Shown in pieces: positions 8,802-50,796 of a DNA stretch of 64,000 bases (its first letter is position 1; each line of letters starts with the position of its first letter). Below the pieces are notes generated by a model. It did no database searches and was not told the DNA's origin. It saw nothing but the letters and a program-made list of their open reading frames with translations. The stretch is from a virus: the UHGV virus genome UHGV-0042229. The stretch is one strand, 5' to 3'. The translations under genes and the position numbers were made by a program.

Positions 8802-9182
8802 CTACTCCGCAGAACCATACAATCTACGTAACGTGTCGGCGACAGAAGATACAGATATCTCTCCGGTCGCAGCCCCTACGGTAAGGTCTGCCAGTTCAGG
8901 TGAATCAAATACCTGCACCCCGTTACGGCGTAGAAATAACAGCGCACTGTTTAGCGCGGTACGCTTATTGGCATCATTGAATATATGCCCTCTCGCTGTA
9001 GCCACCAGGTAGGTGGCGGAGACTTCGAAAAGGTCGGTGATCTCTTCGTAGGCAACTCTGGCCTGAACTCTCCCGATAATGGCCTCTGCCCTACCCGGAT
9101 CTGACATTCCCGGCAGGCCGCCGTAGCGGTTTATATTCGCATCATGAAGCGCAATAAGTTCTTCCGGTGATATATGCCTCAT
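8802..9182 (-). CDS. doc: Doc toxin (Fic/Doc family, 126 aa)
   Basis: 126 aa, [39 protein letters not shown]...[11 protein letters not shown]..., overlapping phd stop. Confidence 0.93.
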
Positions 9183-9403
9183 TATCGGTTAACCAGTTCC
9201 TTGTTGGTGGAGTCCAGGGTGTCAAACAGGGATGCAAATTCAGCATCCAGCGCCGCTTTTTTGTAGGCTTCGAAAGTAGCCTTGCTGACAATTACTGCTG
9301 GCTCACGGCCTCTGCGGGTGATTTCAACCTCTTCCCCGGCTTCAACATTGTTGAGCACTTCAGAAAGGTTGCCGCGCGCGGTACGGAAGTTAATGGATTG
9401 CAT
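9182..9403 (-). CDS. phd: Phd antitoxin (73 aa)
   Basis: [73 protein letters not shown] from ATG at 9403; track ORF starts 2 codons earlier at GTG. Confidence 0.93.
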
Positions 9404-44732: not shown

Positions 44733-46322
44733 ATGTCTCAATATTCAATTCAACAGTCATTAGGTAATGCATCCGGCGTCGCGGTTAGCCCGATCAATGC
44801 CGATGCGACGTTATCTACCGGTGTTGCATTAAATAGCAGCTTGTGGGCTGGTATTGGCGTATTTGCGCGTGGCAAGCCGTTTACTGTTCTGGCGGTTACT
44901 GAGTCCAATTACGAAGATGTTCTCGGCGAACCGCTGAAGCCGTCTTCCGGCTCACAGTTCGAACCAATTCGTCATGTGTACGAAGCTATTCAGCAAACGT
45001 CTGGTTATGTTGTTCGTGCTGTTCCGGATGATGCGAAGTTCCCGATTATTATGTTCGATGAATCAGGCGAACCGGCTTACAGTGCGTTGCCATACGGTTC
45101 TGAAATTGAACTTGATAGTGGCGAAGCCTTTGCTATCTACGTTGATGATGGTGATCCGTGTATTTCACCTACCCGTGAGTTAACCATCGAAACGGCAACA
45201 GCGGATAGCGCGGGTAATGAACGCTTCCTCTTAAAACTGACCCAGACGACTTCGCTCGGCGTGGTAACGACCCTGGAGACACACACTGTATCTTTGGCGG
45301 AAGAAGCGAAAGATGACATGGGCCGCTTGTGTTATCTGCCTACGGCTCTGGAAGCCCGTTCTAAATATCTGCGCGCGGTTGTTAATGAAGAGCTGATTTC
45401 GACGGCGAAAGTAACAAATAAAAAATCGCTGGCGTTCACTGGTGGTACCAACGGTGATCAGTCGAAAATCTCAACCGCTGCGTACCTACGTGCGGTTAAA
45501 GTGCTGAATAATGCGCCGTACATGTACACCGCTGTTCTTGGCCTGGGCTGCTATGACAATGCGGCTATCACCGCATTAGGTAAAATCTGTGCAGATCGCC
45601 TGATTGATGGCTTCTTTGATGTCAAACCGACATTGACGTACACGGAAGCGATCTCTGCTGTTGAAGATACCGGTTTACTTGGTACCGATTATGTAAGCTG
45701 TGCTGTCTATCACTTCCCGTTCTCCTGCAAAGACAAATGGACCCAATCCCGTGTGGTCTTCGGTCTGTCTGGCGCGGCGTATGCGGCGAAAGCTCGCGGC
45801 GTCAAGAAAAACTCTGATGTCGGCGGTTGGCATTACTCACCGGCTGGTGAAGAACGTGCCGTCATTGCTCGTGCGTCAATTCAACCGCTGTATCCGGAAG
45901 ATACCCCGGACGAAGAAGCAATGGTCAAGGGCCGTCTCAATAAAGTATCTGTTGGCACCTCTGGCCAGATGATCATCGACGATGCTTTAACTTGCTGCAC
46001 GCAGGATAACTATCTGCACTTCCAGCACGTCCCATCCCTGATGAATGCAATCAGCCGTTTCTTTGTCCAGTTAGCCCGACAGATGAAGCATAGCCCGGAC
46101 GGTATTACTGCGGCTGGCCTGACTAAAGGGATGACCAAACTTTTAGATCGCTTTGTCGCCTCCGGCGCTCTGGTGGCTCCTCGTGATCCTGATGCTGACG
46201 GTACAGAACCGTATGTGCTGAAAGTTACGCAGGCGGAATTCGATAAATGGGAAGTAGTCTGGGCCTGCTGCCCGACTGGCGTAGCCCGTCGTATCCAGGG
46301 CGTACCGCTGCTTATTAAGTAA
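44733..46322 (+). CDS. Putative tail sheath protein, gene 22-like (529 aa)
   Basis: Second large late ORF; size and position consistent with contractile-tail sheath; GC-rich hairpin 44699-44717 upstream. Confidence 0.5.
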   Translation: MSQYSIQQSLGNASGVAVSPINADATLSTGVALNSSLWAGIGVFARGKPFTVLAVTESNYEDVLGEPLKPSSGSQFEPIRHVYEAIQQTSGYVVRAVPDDAKFPIIMFDESGEPAYSALPYGSEIELDSGEAFAIYVDDGDPCISPTRELTIETATADSAGNERFLLKLTQTTSLGVVTTLETHTVSLAEEAKDDMGRLCYLPTALEARSKYLRAVVNEELISTAKVTNKKSLAFTGGTNGDQSKISTAAYLRAVKVLNNAPYMYTAVLGLGCYDNAAITALGKICADRLIDGFFDVKPTLTYTEAISAVEDTGLLGTDYVSCAVYHFPFSCKDKWTQSRVVFGLSGAAYAAKARGVKKNSDVGGWHYSPAGEERAVIARASIQPLYPEDTPDEEAMVKGRLNKVSVGTSGQMIIDDALTCCTQDNYLHFQHVPSLMNAISRFFVQLARQMKHSPDGITAAGLTKGMTKLLDRFVASGALVAPRDPDADGTEPYVLKVTQAEFDKWEVVWACCPTGVARRIQGVPLLIK

Positions 46323-46331
46323 GGGAATACA

Positions 46332-47147
46332 ATGAGCAAAAACTTTTTTCAATCCGGGGCATTTTTGGGGAATGGACTGTCCCGTTTCGCTTTGAACTCT
46401 GATCCTGTGCAGCTGATGGAGTCTGCCCGAGCAAGCGCCGAACCGCCAACAGATCCGGTTATTAATAATAATCCGGAACCGGCGGCACAGACTAACGATA
46501 ACGTTCCATCTGCCCCGGCTCCTGAGCAAATCCTGGAAGGGAAAGACGGTAAAGAATGGACCGTCGAACAGGCGCACCAGATGATTCTGGAAGCTGCAAA
46601 TCGAAGTGCTATGCAGAATGCGTTGAGTGATGCGGCCGACGCCGTTTTCGCCTGGGCTGATAGCGGTGATCTGACTTTCGACTCCCTTGATGGTTTCGTT
46701 CAGGCTATCGCTGGTATCTCTGATGACGACGACGCCGAAGTTACAGAAGAACAGGACGATGCCTATAACGAAGCATGGGCAAATGTTGCTGACTTCCTCG
46801 CAGCATGCGGTGTAGATGATGACCTGATCGAAGCACTGGCTGACGATGAAGACGACGACGCAGCCGCTGATGTTGGTGCCTCTATCGCTGGTTTAGATAG
46901 CGACGACCGTGACGAACTGGAAGCGGCGTTTGTTGTAGCTGGCACTTCTGATGAAATGCTGACTGAAGCATTTAAGAAGGTTGTTCGTAACGGTGAGATC
47001 AAACTCATCCGTAAACGCCTGCGTAAAAAACGTCTGACTGCGGCTCAAAAATCGGCGCTGAAAAAAGCGCGTCGAAAAGCCCAGACCGGCGCGGCAAAAC
47101 TTGCCCGCAAAAAGTCAATGAAACTGCGCCGTAAGCGCCTTGGCTAA
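46332..47147 (+). CDS. Hypothetical acidic protein with basic C-terminal tail (271 aa)
   Basis: Asp/Glu-rich core, K/R-rich C-terminus (RKRLRKKRLTAAQKSALKKARRKAQ...). Confidence 0.5.
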   Translation: MSKNFFQSGAFLGNGLSRFALNSDPVQLMESARASAEPPTDPVINNNPEPAAQTNDNVPSAPAPEQILEGKDGKEWTVEQAHQMILEAANRSAMQNALSDAADAVFAWADSGDLTFDSLDGFVQAIAGISDDDDAEVTEEQDDAYNEAWANVADFLAACGVDDDLIEALADDEDDDAAADVGASIAGLDSDDRDELEAAFVVAGTSDEMLTEAFKKVVRNGEIKLIRKRLRKKRLTAAQKSALKKARRKAQTGAAKLARKKSMKLRRKRLG

Positions 47148-47182
47148 AGGAGGAGGCCGGAGAACTCCGGCCTTTAACTTGA

Positions 47183-47764
47183 ATGGCACCTATACCTTAT
47201 GGGGTTTACAGCCAGGCTGACGGTGTATCGCCATTTCTGAAAGTTACTTTAACGAACTCTCAGTACCAGGTTACCGGATATATCAGCCAGGGGGCAGCAA
47301 TGAATATGGCCCAGAATTGGGAAGCGCCGTTTACCGGTATGTCCATGGGGTCTGTTGCTGGTGCTTTCAGTGGTTTTGCGCAGGTTGGTACTGAAACAAC
47401 GTCGGTGGCCCGTTGGAACAGCTTAATGGTTTGGGAGGGGGGAACACCGCCGACTTTCACGCTGCCAGTAACTTTCATCGCTTTGTTTGACCCATTCACG
47501 GAGGTTTCAGGAGCTATCGCCGCATTGTCAGCGATGATTAGCCCGGAACTTAAAGATGCCAGTATTGGTGGTCGAATCCCGGAGCGTGTGACGCTAAACA
47601 TTGGTCGCCGGATCAACATCATTGATGTCGCTATCCAGGACATAAGTTTCGATCTCGATGCGCCCAGGGACAGCAATGGGCATTTCCTGAAAAACACCGT
47701 CAACCTCCAGTTGACCGGTTCTTCGATATATAACAGCTCCGATATTGTTCGGGCGTTCCAGTAA
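47183..47764 (+). CDS. Hypothetical structural protein (193 aa)
   Basis: ORF track; late operon context. Confidence 0.5.
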   Translation: MAPIPYGVYSQADGVSPFLKVTLTNSQYQVTGYISQGAAMNMAQNWEAPFTGMSMGSVAGAFSGFAQVGTETTSVARWNSLMVWEGGTPPTFTLPVTFIALFDPFTEVSGAIAALSAMISPELKDASIGGRIPERVTLNIGRRINIIDVAIQDISFDLDAPRDSNGHFLKNTVNLQLTGSSIYNSSDIVRAFQ

Positions 47765-47775
47765 AAGGATTTTAT

Positions 47776-48285
47776 ATGGGGCACAATAACACTAAGGGAA
47801 ACCGTAAATTTATTAAGGGCCGCTATACTGCCAACGCGGCCAAAGGCGAACGACTGGTATCTTCTGAATTCCAGCTCACTTTTGCAGGCCATGAAGATAT
47901 CAGCGTACTGGTTCGCACGTCGCAAATTCCTGAAATGACCCGCGAGGATGTGGAGGACTATGGTCCGAATGGTGTGAAGTTCAACCAGCACGGACCAATT
48001 CGAAACTCTGGGGAAATCCAGGTCCAGTGCGTGGAGACTATCGAAGGCGATATTCTTCAGTTCATCAAGGATCGCATTGCGGCGAAGGACTATGTTGATA
48101 TCACGATGGCTGCTACCCCTGAATCCAAATCTTCCGGGGTTAACGCTGTAACAAAAGCTGCTACAACAATTGAAATGTTGGACTGCAAAATCTACAGTGA
48201 TGCAATCGACTTTAGTACCGAAGATGTGACTGCCGCTGTGCGCCCGTCACTTCGTATCGTCTACAACTGGATTGAGTGGGATTAA
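47776..48285 (+). CDS. Putative tail tube or baseplate protein (169 aa)
   Basis: ORF track; last gene before strong terminator; assignment weak. Confidence 0.4.
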   Translation: MGHNNTKGNRKFIKGRYTANAAKGERLVSSEFQLTFAGHEDISVLVRTSQIPEMTREDVEDYGPNGVKFNQHGPIRNSGEIQVQCVETIEGDILQFIKDRIAAKDYVDITMAATPESKSSGVNAVTKAATTIEMLDCKIYSDAIDFSTEDVTAAVRPSLRIVYNWIEWD

Positions 48286-48304
48286 GAGTCATCCCTTGTA
48301 TTTT

Positions 48305-48328
48305 AAAGCTCCTTCGGGAGCTTTTTTA
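48305..48328 (+). terminator. Rho-independent terminator ending the head/tail operon
   Basis: aaagctcc-ttcg-ggagcttt followed by tttttatt. Confidence 0.8.
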
Positions 48329-48401
48329 TTTGGAGATGAAAGGGTGCATTGAGGATACCTGACACACTAAGAGTGGCGGAGATCTCTCCCCGCCAGGTCT
48401 C

Positions 48402-48557
48402 TTACCTTTCAGATTCGTAGGCTGTGAAGACAGTGACCTCCGTCTGGCCGGTTCGGATTCGTACCTCGCAGAGGTCTTTCCTCGTTACCAGTGCCGTCAC
48501 AATGACGGTTAAACAGATGACGATCAGAGCGATTAACATCGCTTTTTGCTGCTTCAT
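48402..48557 (-). CDS. Hok/Gef-family type I toxin (51 aa)
   Basis: MKQQKAMLIALIVICLTVIVTALVTRKDLCEVRIRTGQTEVTVFTAYESER, near-identical in pattern to E. coli Gef (MKQHKAMIVALIVICITAVVAALVTRKDLCEVHIRTGQTEVAVFTAYESE). Confidence 0.75.
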   Translation of the reverse strand: MKQQKAMLIALIVICLTVIVTALVTRKDLCEVRIRTGQTEVTVFTAYESER

Positions 48558-48615
48558 AGCCTGCTTCTCCTTGACCTTTTGGTCGGTAAGAGGCTAATCT
48601 ACGTATGCTAAGCAT
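48409..48615 (-). CDS. mok-like overlapping reading frame (68 aa)
   Basis: Track ORF in a different frame covering almost all of the hok-like gene, as mok does in hok/sok loci. Confidence 0.4.
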   Translation of the reverse strand: MLSIRRLASYRPKGQGEAGYEAAKSDVNRSDRHLFNRHCDGTGNEERPLRGTNPNRPDGGHCLHSLRI

Positions 48616-48738
48616 AGATATGGCCTCAGATTAATGTTAAGCGTCTTGCAGGACGCGTAATGTTATCTGGGGCTTTCTTCTATCTGCTTTTCGGGTAATG
48701 CCTGAAGCAGATAGCCTCAAGCACCCGCAACGATTGTA

Positions 48739-48984
48739 TCAATGTCTGGCTTTTTTTCTATAGAAATCACCTGGAAGGGTGAATATCCACATCAGAAGAA
48801 ATGTTGCAGCAAACATGATCCCTAATGGCCAGACCGCGCCAAAGAAAATCCATACTAAGATCTCCTCTGCTCGTTCTTTGCGGTCGATATCGACAAGCAT
48901 TTTTCGGCTGATCATGTATACACAGAAGCCAATACAAACATATCCTGCAAAAGCGATCGCTAACTGTAAAAAATTAGATTGCAT
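48739..48984 (-). CDS. Small membrane protein (81 aa from internal ATG) downstream of repL
   Basis: Track ORF 48739-49065 trimmed to avoid overlap with repL; two predicted TM helices. Confidence 0.35.
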   Translation of the reverse strand: MQSNFLQLAIAFAGYVCIGFCVYMISRKMLVDIDRKERAEEILVWIFFGAVWPLGIMFAATFLLMWIFTLPGDFYRKKARH

Positions 48985-49034
48985 CTCCGACCTCAAACTG
49001 AAAACGCCAGGTGACTCCAGATTAGAGCAATCTA

Positions 49035-49880
49035 TCACCCTCTGAATCCTGCCGGTATACCCCATTGTTCGTTATCTTTATTTTTGGCTAAAACCGCATT
49101 AAGAGCTTCGTTTACCGTCATGCAATGCGGCAGATTATCGAAGTTTGATATCCCGCCAATATCAGGAGAACGCTTGTCCTTCAGGTAAGCATATTTCCGC
49201 GCTGCCGCCTCTACTTTCTGCTTGAACTCATGTTTTTGAGCGCGTTTTTTGGATAACCGCAGATTGTCAGCCTTTGCTTTTGCCTCAGCGATCCATGAAG
49301 TCAATTTTTTGAGTCTGGTCGTTCCGGCACCGCCGGAAACTGATCTTTTTGTTTTTTTAACTTGTGACTTCTTATTCTTTATTGCCACGTCATCCTGACA
49401 GGGGGAGGGGGTATCATTTTGACATGGGGGTGTGGATAAAAAATTAAATAAAGCCAATGTCTTAGCGAGAACAGCTTTAACCTTGGTTGCCGCTGAAGAG
49501 ATCTTTAATTTGCTTTCAATCAGCGCATTTTTGGCTTGTTGTGCGAAGGCCAAAAAGGATGGTGTAAACCGGTACAGGTTAGCGCGACGTTCACGGTGAT
49601 CGCCGATAACAATCTCTACAGACAGAATTCCTTTGTTTACAGCTTCACGGAATGCACGAACGACGGTTGATTGGCTATAACCAGTTTCTGCCGCGATCAG
49701 GCGGTGAGGCTTGTGAATGAAGTATTCACTGGTTGTTGCCGCTAGATTTGCACATTGCGACAGGATATGCCCGGCGCTACGGGATAGACCGGAGTGTGTT
49801 ACAAAGCAGGCCAATTCATAGCCAGAAAAAGTAAAATCGCTCATCGTTATACAGCTCAGGAAAGTGACTTTAGCCAGCAT
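49035..49880 (-). CDS. repL: Lytic replication initiator RepL (281 aa)
   Basis: 281-aa ORF downstream of kilA in an operon with an upstream C1 operator; size and order as P1 kilA-repL. Confidence 0.88.
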   Translation of the reverse strand: MLAKVTFLSCITMSDFTFSGYELACFVTHSGLSRSAGHILSQCANLAATTSEYFIHKPHRLIAAETGYSQSTVVRAFREAVNKGILSVEIVIGDHRERRANLYRFTPSFLAFAQQAKNALIESKLKISSAATKVKAVLAKTLALFNFLSTPPCQNDTPSPCQDDVAIKNKKSQVKKTKRSVSGGAGTTRLKKLTSWIAEAKAKADNLRLSKKRAQKHEFKQKVEAAARKYAYLKDKRSPDIGGISNFDNLPHCMTVNEALNAVLAKNKDNEQWGIPAGFRG

Positions 49881-49909
49881 TACAATGCTGGTGGTTCTTA
49901 CTACGTCTG

Positions 49910-50710
49910 TTAGCGCGTTGCCGCGACAGGTACCAGCACACCAGTATCAAGCAATCGCTTCATCAGCCACTGCTGACCTTTGCCGGTTATACGAGTCGTG
50001 AAAGAAATCCTGCTTCCATTGCTTGTATCGATCACGGTTTCTTTAAGGGTGAAATACCCACGGGATATGTATTCTTGTTTGGGGACGTTCCTGCGTTCAC
50101 CGGTTGCGATCAGAATTCCGTTATCACGCAACCAGGTGAAGAGATAGTTTTGGCCCAGACCGAGCACTTTGGCATAGTTGCCGATTAGAACCCCGCTGGC
50201 GGTAGCAACGCGTTCGGCGAATTCGACTTTAGGTGCATCCATAAGCATTTTTTGTTCCAGCCGTTGCTTTTGCTCTGCCAGGTCGGCAGCCAAACGGAGA
50301 GCTTCAGGGAGACTCTGCGGAATAGCAGGTTGTAATCTTCCGGCTCGATAGTCGATAAATGTCTGGTTTACCTTCAGCCGAAACGCGGGAGAAATCCAAC
50401 CAGCGTACTCCACTGCGAGCAATTCATGGGCAAAAGTGCCGCCGCCACGGCCTTCGAACGAAACTATGCAATTCTGCATAGTTTCTTTTTCAAGCTCTTC
50501 GATGAGCTGTTTAGCTGACAGCGTTCTTAGCCATTGAGCTGGCGCTTTATGGGCACCGAGTCCGCTCGCTCTGTGTAGAGCATTAAGGTTGTAACGGCCA
50601 GCGCGGTCGGTCGTAATTTCAACACCACAAATAACGGGCAGAGTGGTTGAAGGATCGACATTTTGATGAAGGTTTGATATATTCATATCCGCATTGAATG
50701 TTTGTTGCAT
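49910..50710 (-). CDS. kilA: KilA (266 aa): KilA-N domain plus Ant-like C-terminal domain
   Basis: N-terminal KilA-N pattern; C-terminal PQSLPEALRLAADLAEQKQRLE...GNYAKVLGLGQNYLFTWLRDNGIL... related to the Ant C-termini. Confidence 0.85.
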   Translation of the reverse strand: MQQTFNADMNISNLHQNVDPSTTLPVICGVEITTDRAGRYNLNALHRASGLGAHKAPAQWLRTLSAKQLIEELEKETMQNCIVSFEGRGGGTFAHELLAVEYAGWISPAFRLKVNQTFIDYRAGRLQPAIPQSLPEALRLAADLAEQKQRLEQKMLMDAPKVEFAERVATASGVLIGNYAKVLGLGQNYLFTWLRDNGILIATGERRNVPKQEYISRGYFTLKETVIDTSNGSRISFTTRITGKGQQWLMKRLLDTGVLVPVAATR

Positions 50711-50779
50711 TTTTTCTCCAAATTTGCATCAACCTTCAATCACCAGCTCGAAATGGTGATTCTTTGCACTTAGAAAACG

Positions 50780-50796
50780 AAATTTATTAGAGCAAA
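50780..50796 (-). promoter_or_regulatory. C1 operator-like site (Op53-like) upstream of kilA-repL
   Basis: aaatttattagagcaaa, 16/17 to reverse-complement consensus. Confidence 0.65.

Follow-up and report, generated by a model that had tools for sequence, protein, structure and literature searches.

The closest described systems

Post-segregational killing is the established role of the hok/sok (parB) locus of plasmid R1, known from the work of the Gerdes laboratory. The locus described here lies in a 64,000-nucleotide stretch of the virus genome UHGV-0042229 (hereafter the window), where the elements of the R1 locus recur in the same order: tac, leader, mok, hok, 3' hairpin and fbi. In both systems the mok start codon is located 58 nt upstream of the hok start codon and out of frame with it, the Sok promoter lies inside mok on the opposite strand, and the host is a low-copy plasmid. 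The helix between tac and fbi, GGCGC/GCGCC in R1, reads GGGUGC/GCACCC in the window and is thus kept via compensatory changes. In contrast, the two Hok proteins are 42–43% identical, much of the leader sequence differs, and the window contains no dedicated counterpart of the terminator that R1 hok/sok possesses. The alignment with R1, proposed in a first-pass annotation of the window, and with the annotated hokW/mokW/sokW locus of 933W placed the classical elements by homology; its R1 hok mRNA reference agrees at 100% identity over 433 nt with many IncF plasmids in which Hok is annotated.

The closest characterized relative is hokW-sokW of the Stx2 phages 933W and Sakai prophage 5, which is 88.1% identical at the nucleotide level over 394 nt to positions 48342–48729 of the window and has the leader, tac, fbi and the Sok hairpin in common with it. 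HokW of phage 933W shares 47 of 51 residues (92%) with the Hok protein of the window, and its toxicity on expression has been demonstrated (PMC8621323). The two loci differ in four respects. The mok ATG of hokW shares the reading frame of hok, which starts 57 nt further on, so that an extended Hok of 70 aa ('MokW') results, whereas a 1-nt indel gives the window the 58-nt, out-of-frame arrangement. The Sok promoter is TTGCCT-17-TAACCT in sokW and TTGACC-18-TAATCT in the window. The lambdoid copies carry an intrinsic terminator after fbi, for which the window has a bplB terminator in reverse orientation. Lastly, the host of hokW-sokW is an integrated lambdoid prophage and that of the window copy a plasmid prophage.

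The hokD (relF) gene of Escherichia coli K-12 affiliates to the same lineage. K-12-type strains are 91% identical to the window at the nucleotide level; their copies match positions 15–244 of the query only, i.e. the hok ORF and its 3' region, and lack the leader, the mok start and sok, while the window copy is complete. Judged by sequence, the window module is a member of the prophage hokD/hokW lineage and not of the R1 plasmid lineage.

A different system with the same logic, phd-doc of P1, resides on the same replicon: an unstable antidote is combined with a stable poison, and plasmid-free segregants are killed. In phd-doc, ClpXP degrades the antitoxin, which is a protein, and the toxin Doc is a Fic-family kinase. 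Neither an RNA antitoxin nor a membrane peptide takes part, and phd-doc has no sequence relationship to hok/sok.

Architecture of the module

The locus is best explained as an intact hok/mok/sok type I module of the hokD/hokW lineage that has its place at the variable bplB-repL site of a P1-like phage-plasmid and would act by the classical mechanism; we assign this reading a probability of about 0.88. Its elements are compiled in Table 1. The first-pass annotation had placed the locus at 48402–48660, and the features it named do lie there, but the locus is larger, covering approximately 48300–48760: the leader extends to about 48726, the hok promoter to 48760, and fbi is found at 48342–48354.

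Table 1 Features of the hok/sok locus and its surroundings in the window (MFE, minimum free energy structure)
Feature	Position	Strand	Basis or description
hok toxin gene, 51 aa	48402–48557	−	ORF list, Pfam PF01848, PHROG 251
mok reading frame, 68 codons	48409–48615	−	ORF list; frame differs from hok
hok mRNA promoter	48733–48760	−	−35 TAGAAA (48760–48755), 16-nt spacer, extended −10 TGaTACAAT (48738–48733)
Predicted full-length hok mRNA, ~427 nt	48300–48726	−	MFE fold and alignment
Structured hok leader containing the Sok target region	48552–48726	−	Rfam RF01794
tac element GGGUGCUUGAGG, mRNA 5' end	48715–48726	−	Pairs with fbi in MFE
fbi element CCUCAAUGCACCC	48342–48354	−	Pairs with tac in MFE
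Hairpin UAGCCUCUU (ucb-like) with AAGGAG..AGGCUA (dcb-like)	48557–48596	−	MFE of full-length RNA
GC-rich 3' hairpin GGCGGGGAGAGAUCUCCGCC, 3' of hok stop	48375–48394	−	MFE
Hairpin AAAGCTCC-TTCG-GGAGCTTT	48305–48324	both	bplB terminator (+), sole hok terminator candidate (−)
Sok promoter	48571–48600	+	−35 TTGACC (48571–48576), 18-nt spacer, −10 TAATCT (48595–48600)
Predicted Sok antisense RNA, ~71 nt	48607–48677	+	Transferred from annotated 71-nt sokW of 933W
orf81, small hydrophobic protein, 81 aa	48739–48984	−	PHROG 3772, E 2.8e-53
Variable cassette, 693 bp	48328–49020		Replaces 1826-bp pmgF-rlfB-rlfA of reference P1

The Hok protein (MKQQKAMLIALIVICLTVIVTALVTRKDLCEVRIRTGQTEVTVFTAYESER, translated from 48402–48557 on the minus strand) had been likened to Gef/Hok from its 51-aa ORF, an assignment borne out by two family models and by the identity with HokW. 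It matched the complete Pfam model PF01848 (HOK_GEF; positions 1–42 of 42) with 78.7 bits and an E-value of 2.4e-22, against a gathering score of 22 bits, and PHROG 251 ('MokW-like host killing') with an E-value of 4.9e-32. An N-terminal hydrophobic helix (LIALIVICLTVIVTALV) is followed by TRKDLCEV. The conserved TRK-LCE core with two cysteines is present, and residues C15, C30, T25, R26, K27 and E31 are invariant in an alignment of Hok from the window, HokW and R1 Hok. Two NCBIfam models remained below their cut-offs, namely NF007279 (Hok family toxin, a subfamily model; 49.5 bits, curated cut-off 73) and the HokA equivalog (38.1 bits, cut-off 89). The low scores concern these two models only; on sequence grounds the Pfam and PHROG membership of the protein is clear. 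A chance ORF is ruled out by the Pfam match, the E-value of the Rfam match in the leader and the z-score of the RNA fold (both given below).

The mok frame overlaps hok except for the final 7 nt of hok. It had been recognized before as a 68-aa mok-like frame, which agrees with the ORF list and with the R1-like spacing and frame offset. A Shine-Dalgarno sequence (GAGG) lies 8 nt 5' of its ATG (at 48615 on the minus strand), and this ATG is invariant in the three-way alignment of window, 933W and R1. The 58-nt, out-of-frame arrangement is kept in all 18 copies of the P1 lineage (the window and 17 others), and the 57-nt, in-frame arrangement was found in 56 lambdoid-type loci; the in-frame, 70-aa 'MokW' type is absent from the window copy. 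P1-type and lambdoid mok forms are distinguished by a 1-nt indel in the loop of the hairpin that is predicted to sequester the hok Shine-Dalgarno sequence. The Mok peptides of the two forms are identical at 11 of 25 positions in the N-terminal stretch and show no sequence likeness beyond it, which fits the established view that the translation of mok matters and its product does not.

On the plus strand, an ORF of 57 aa (48424–48597) runs antisense to hok and mok.

In a generic promoter scan the hok promoter matched the consensus at 9 of 12 positions and contained the TG of an extended −10 element. Its −10 element aligns with TAGAAT of the 933W hokW locus, and the promoter overlaps the stop codon of orf81. 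G48726, located 7 nt 3' of the −10 element, corresponds to position 1 of the Rfam model; we infer that the transcript starts at this nucleotide and ends at the hairpin shared with bplB. The resulting 427-nt transcript (48726–48300) can be aligned over its whole length with both the R1-type hok mRNA and the hokW locus of 933W and has a predicted folding energy of −164.6 kcal/mol (z = −8.8), which none of 100 shuffled sequences equalled. The leader matched the Rfam family RF01794 ('sok') with 114.9 bits and an E-value of 6.3e-27 (gathering score 59 bits); the match comprises model positions 1–157 of 157 and spans 175 nt, with a 16-nt insertion relative to the Rfam consensus in the region of the Sok hairpin. 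Since it is the sense strand of hok that is matched, up to the hok AUG, the match marks the leader and sok region and not the Sok transcript itself. Together with the z-score of the fold the match corroborates the inverted-repeat-rich leader described in the first-pass annotation.

Further candidates in the region were rejected. The Rfam matches to CRISPR-DR46, ceN48 and sbrA and a plus-strand match to 'sok' (21 bits) were far under the gathering scores. A second minus-strand promoter match inside the leader (48640–48611) has no counterpart in known systems and was treated as a chance occurrence.

In the MFE structure of the 427-nt RNA, the first 12 nt are paired with fbi. The tac element hardly varies among the aligned sequences of the window, R1 and 933W, and the local complementarity score of the pair in the window (36) was reached by none of 40 shuffles. 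Relatives from viral contigs, with 94–100% amino acid identity, are too close for covariation, and hence the survey was made on 54 distinct hok loci, taken from a single scan of genomes at species level, in which the region 135–215 nt upstream of hok was compared with that 15–115 nt downstream by local complementarity. Both sites came up again at consistent positions, with compensatory changes across genera: the helix is GGGUGC/GCACCC in the window lineage, GGGCGC/GCGCCC in Photorhabdus, GGCGC/GCGCC in R1-type loci and GGGUGCUCUGGAUC/GAUCCAUGAGCACCC in Mixta. No such pair was found by this survey in the truncated K-12-type hokD copies, and many helices of R1-type and hokC-type loci are too short to beat shuffles singly; the family-wide argument is therefore drawn from the consistent positions and the compensatory changes and not from per-locus significance. 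An unrestricted RNAduplex search of upstream against downstream regions in the 54 loci returned whole-length duplexes with z near 0.

A hairpin at 48557–48596 is predicted to sequester the hok Shine-Dalgarno sequence AAGGAG (48572–48567) in the full-length RNA. Both arms are conserved in R1 and 933W; we take them to be the equivalents of ucb and dcb and name them after the R1 system. When the 3' 62 nt were removed in silico, the 5' end formed a local tac hairpin, and the mok start was not clearly exposed in the MFE structure. In this model the 5' refolding upon 3' removal goes in the direction expected of a hok refolding switch. The hairpin at 48305–48324 was called as a terminator on the plus strand only, and on the minus strand 3 U follow its stem. 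It lies within DNA common with reference P1, to which homology ends at 48327. With the left junction of the cassette just past this bplB terminator hairpin, the hok mRNA would be devoid of the dedicated terminator of the lambdoid copies.

The Sok promoter aligns with TTGCGC-17-TATCCT of R1 and TTGCCT-17-TAACCT of sokW and is the same in 18 of 18 P1-lineage copies. A Sok-like promoter on the plus strand had been anticipated at 48560–48640, and the candidate, located by homology, does fall inside that interval. The generic consensus scan did not call it, since its −10 element TAATCT has only three of six consensus positions. This element aligns with the −10 element TAACCT of sokW, whose mutation in the promoter-less construct (primer YO-421) abolished the antitoxin activity (Takada et al. 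2021, PMC8621323). The coordinates of the putative Sok RNA were carried over through the gap-free part of the alignment between the window and 933W. This RNA is predicted to fold (−33.2 kcal/mol, z = −5.8) into a single-stranded 5' tail, a long hairpin and a U-rich tail, the 5' tail being complementary to the start codon and Shine-Dalgarno region of mok.

Genomic setting and distribution

In this P1-like phage-plasmid the cassette is flanked by bplB on one side and repL on the other. Its breakpoints were determined by blastn against reference P1 (NC_005856) and 933W. On the left, window positions 46300–48327 are 96.3% identical to gene 21-pmgG-bplB of P1, and on the right, positions 49021–50750 are 98.7% identical to repL-kilA. 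The right junction cuts the C1 operator Orlf: ATTGCTCTAAT is retained in the window, and the sequence diverges thereafter. Within the cassette, homology to prophage hok loci is limited to 48342–48729.

The first-pass annotation had described the toxin locus as next to repL. This holds for the neighbourhood, but orf81 intervenes, and the repL stop codon starts at 49035. By tblastn, orf81 was found in P1-like phages only, including the hok-less SJ46 (46% identity) and RCS47 (partial); it is part of the context and outside the toxin-antitoxin module. The module is directly downstream of, and co-directional with, the kilA-repL operon, and no convincing terminator lies between them. Elsewhere in the window, phd-doc is intact (8805–9403, minus strand), which makes hok/sok the second toxin-antitoxin module of the replicon and one of a different type, as the first-pass annotation had maintained.

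Neither an IS element nor a frameshift interrupts the locus in the window. In NZ_CP081699.1, bplB and hok are separated by a transposase gene of the IS421 family, and the match with the window sets in again at 48381. In pSvP1, IS186B is inserted at the site of the 3' hairpin, with the direct repeat GGATCTCTCC (PMC6906374).

A 551-nt query spanning the left junction and the module (48250–48800) matched 227 PLSDB plasmids at at least 80% coverage, many of them with 100% identity and among them plasmids from Klebsiella and E. fergusonii. The P1-type cassette pmgF-rlfB-rlfA was found in 99 PLSDB plasmids at the same coverage of at least 80%. The hok/sok cassette is thus the commoner allele at the bplB-repL site in public plasmids. 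Among 5426 complete E. coli genomes, 230 contain the full hok/sok cassette and 4739 contain hokD-type loci with 80–91% nucleotide identity, the chromosomal copies reaching 87–91%; most of the latter are chromosomal (10174 of the 10986 hokD-type places in these genomes).

The module as such is already known: it belongs to a textbook family, and hundreds of public plasmids contain an identical copy with the annotation 'HokD toxin'. The RefSeq entry for the identical protein (WP_001313475.1) reads 'type I toxin-antitoxin system toxin HokD', HokD being the name assigned by PGAP, and a GenBank record of P1 names the same protein MokW. Within P1-like elements, rlfA-rlfB-pmgF has been listed among eight hypervariable regions (Yao et al. 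2022, PMC9603915), and an 'antibacterial toxin' has been noted in its place (Venturini 2019). The latter was the nearest statement in a literature search on hok/sok in P1-like elements, which retrieved no explicit description and no functional study (expression, toxicity, stability) of these copies.

Proposed mechanism and biological role

The mechanism is almost certainly the classical one, in which a stable toxin mRNA is combined with an unstable antisense RNA. Its steps follow the R1 and hokW paradigms; the sequence features were computed in the window, and kinetics and toxicity are inferred from R1 and hokW-sokW. A weak minus-strand promoter (48760–48733) would give rise to a stable hok mRNA of about 430 nt, in which 5' tac pairs with 3' fbi and a hairpin masks the ribosome-binding site of hok. 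As a consequence of this closure and masking, the full-length mRNA would be neither translated nor bound by Sok. Slow trimming from the 3' end would remove fbi and permit refolding of the 5' end, whereupon mok would become translatable and hok translation would be coupled to that of mok. While the plasmid is present, the short, unstable Sok RNA would pair with the mok start region and block the translation of mok and hok. In R1 and hokW, the Sok duplex is cut by RNase III. Once Sok synthesis is stopped, be it by plasmid loss, a general shut-off of transcription or prophage induction, the stored mRNA would yield Hok, a 51-aa inner-membrane peptide expected to collapse the membrane potential. 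For a low-copy plasmid prophage the direct consequence would be post-segregational killing, beside that by phd-doc, and the same switch upon loss of Sok could fire upon induction or superinfection, too.

Several observations speak against this explanation. The Sok promoter combines an 18-nt spacer with a −10 element that has three of six consensus positions, and the generic scan did not call it. A dedicated terminator after fbi is absent, its place being taken by the reversed bplB terminator with 3 U. The mok start is not clearly free in the MFE structure of the shortened RNA, the NCBIfam Hok models remain under their curated cut-offs, and the nearest tested relative was shown to act in lysis on induction and not in stabilization. 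Nonetheless, the role of an extra stabilization module, as put forward in the first-pass annotation, is a reasonable inference. Stabilization is retained as the leading reading because the plasmid is near single copy, so that killing of plasmid-free segregants would follow if the module is active.

The same module may have been selected for faster killing or lysis of the host and a larger release of phage after induction. This role is compatible with stabilization, which would then be secondary, and we consider it possible, albeit clearly short of probable. It is suggested foremost by hokW-sokW, the closest characterized relative at 88% nucleotide and 92% amino acid identity: upon induction of prophage Sp5, sokW RNA disappears and HokW is produced, and in a deletion of hokW-sokW the growth arrest comes about 40 min later and half as many phages are released (PMC8621323). 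The lineage occurs almost entirely in integrated prophages, as the count of chromosomal places given above indicates, and segregational loss is no issue there. The position of the module directly downstream of the C1-controlled lytic operon kilA-repL, in the same direction and with no convincing terminator in between, points the same way. Yet the gain in Sp5 was a modest 2-fold, observed in a lambdoid rather than a P1-like phage, and the window copy differs from hokW in mok frame, Sok promoter and terminator. Moreover, P1 already possesses its own system for the timing of lysis, consisting of holin, antiholin and endolysin. A further reading, which we regard as speculative and improbable, is that the module is wired to the lytic switch of P1, with read-through from kilA-repL silencing Sok and coupling Hok to induction. 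If this were true, the read-through would meet the Sok promoter from the opposite direction and shut it down by transcriptional interference. The 5'-extended hok RNAs that it yields would be unable to form the tac-fbi closure, and the disappearance of sokW RNA on Sp5 induction, itself unexplained, would gain a mechanism.

Somewhat less likely than a role in lysis, and unlikely in itself, is that the module is kept to exclude other phages or to abort their infections: when superinfection brings host transcription to a halt, the decay of Sok would let Hok kill the cell at an early stage. The part of the literature that bears on this, as cited in PMC8621323, attributes to R1 hok/sok on a high-copy plasmid a reduction of the T4 plating efficiency by 42% and of the plaque size by about 85%; this effect is weak and depended on a high copy number, in contrast to the near single copy of P1-like plasmids. 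In reference P1, the products of rlfA-rlfB match the PADLOC candidate defence system PDC-M04A/B (E-values 1e-95 and 1e-51), and the rlfA-rlfB cassette is dispensable for the growth of P1 (PMC10695390). From these two observations the bplB-repL slot looks like a hot spot for accessory or defence genes. For hok/sok this amounts to guilt by association; PDC-M04 is itself a candidate system, and PADLOC contains no Hok model, so that the PADLOC search gives no direct support.

An inactive relic that hitch-hikes like the chromosomal hok loci of E. coli K-12 is very improbable: relatives are often damaged, be it by absence of the leader and sok (K-12-type strains, query positions 15–244) or by IS421 and IS186 elements at the 3' hairpin (NZ_CP081699.1 and pSvP1, PMC6906374), and the native terminator is absent from the window copy, but in this copy both promoters, tac, fbi, mok, hok and the Sok hairpin are intact and uninterrupted, all 18 P1-lineage copies retain the mok frame and the Sok promoter, and the allele is the commoner one in plasmids.

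The importance of the finding is limited. It shows that two unrelated poison-antidote modules, phd-doc and hok/sok, are present in most natural P1-like phage-plasmids, and that the laboratory reference P1, in which rlfA-rlfB-pmgF fills the site, represents the minority. The finding is of relevance to the use of reference P1 as a model of plasmid-prophage stability and to the persistence of those P1-like plasmids by which resistance genes, e.g. mcr-1 and blaCTX-M, are disseminated. The locus appears suited for testing stabilization, lysis timing and phage exclusion against each other in an element that is both phage and plasmid.

Alleles of the bplB-repL gap

Comparison of the window with reference P1 and with SJ46 and RCS47, two P1-like phages without hok, revealed at least three alleles between bplB and repL, the P1 genes flanking this variable cassette in P1-like elements. 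In PLSDB, the hok allele was counted 227 times versus 99 for the allele of reference P1. The segment of P1 replaced at window positions 48328-49020 includes rlfB and rlfA (L004:2832-4000), which are traditionally annotated as 'possibly associated with lytic replication'. Both genes were non-essential in a CRISPRi screen of P1 (PMC10695390). In PADLOC, rlfA matched PDC-M04A (E 1e-95) and rlfB matched PDC-M04B (E 1e-51) of a candidate anti-phage system, and no mention of PDC-M04 was found in the literature searched.

The third allele combines an ORF of ~200 aa and an orf81 homologue with a different third component in SJ46 and RCS47. In SJ46, the gene J46_0018 (L005:3245-3760, -), annotated as 'replication protein RepL', affiliates with PF13505 (E 2.2e-24) and PF06316 (E 1.3e-22) and is an Ail/Lom-type outer-membrane beta-barrel protein. 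Homologues of the hydrophobic protein Orf81 were restricted to P1-like phages (tblastn). In the window, the hok promoter shares part of its extended -10 with the stop codon of orf81; a mechanical ORF list gave the gene as a 108-aa version starting inside repL.

Features of the variable cassette and examples of C1 operator matches (window positions unless a reference locus is named)
Feature	Position	Strand	Remark
Allele pmgF-rlfB-rlfA	L004:2329-4154		P1, P7
Allele hok/sok + orf81	48328-49020
Third allele, SJ46 form	L005:1987-3855		with Ail/Lom-like gene
Third allele, RCS47 form	L006:1987-4419		with ISEc46 element
orf81	48739-48984	-	81 aa, PHROG 3772
Insertion at hok 3' hairpin	L166:1332-2444		NZ_CP081699.1
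C1 operator match	31526-31542
C1 operator match	1111-1127
C1 operator match	50780-50796

Variation in and around hok

A 1-nt indel toggles the mok frame relative to hok (window 48557-48615 versus L001:1718-1775 of phage 933W). In P1-type copies and R1, mok lies 58 nt upstream of hok and out of frame, whereas in the lambdoid hokW/hokD type it lies 57 nt upstream, in frame with hok, and carries the annotation MokW (70 aa). Each of the two arrangements is widespread.

The GC-rich hairpin directly 3' of hok (48375-48394) is an insertion site of IS186/IS421 in relatives, where the insertion separates fbi from hok. Similarly, chromosomal hok loci of K-12 have adjacent IS insertions. The relatives with an insertion at the GC-rich hairpin are NZ_CP081699.1 and pSvP1 (PMC6906374). 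On the hok strand, the sole terminator-like structure past fbi is the bplB terminator hairpin (48305-48324), which in this direction is followed by just 3 U.

The scan of bacterial genome contigs yielded Hok genes under four further species labels (L100, L115, L090 and L155). Identical or near-identical genes were located on tiny contigs from assemblies labelled Acinetobacter idrijaensis (275 bp) and Xanthomonas pisi (431 bp). Hok genes with lower similarity (42-96% identity) were located on contigs bearing the labels Veillonella parvula MAG and Streptomyces morookaense. All four probably represent enterobacterial contamination.

C1 operators and the right junction

With the P1 C1 operator consensus ATTGCTCTAATAAATTT and up to 3 mismatches, 14 sites were detected in the window versus 0.34 expected by chance, consistent with a P1-type immunity network. 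On its right side, the variable cassette joins the P1 backbone within the C1 operator Orlf (Op55), at 49021-49037 (-): ATTGCTCTAAT is retained in the window and is then followed by CTGGAG, versus TATAAC in P1. Downstream of repL, C1 control is probably altered in the window.
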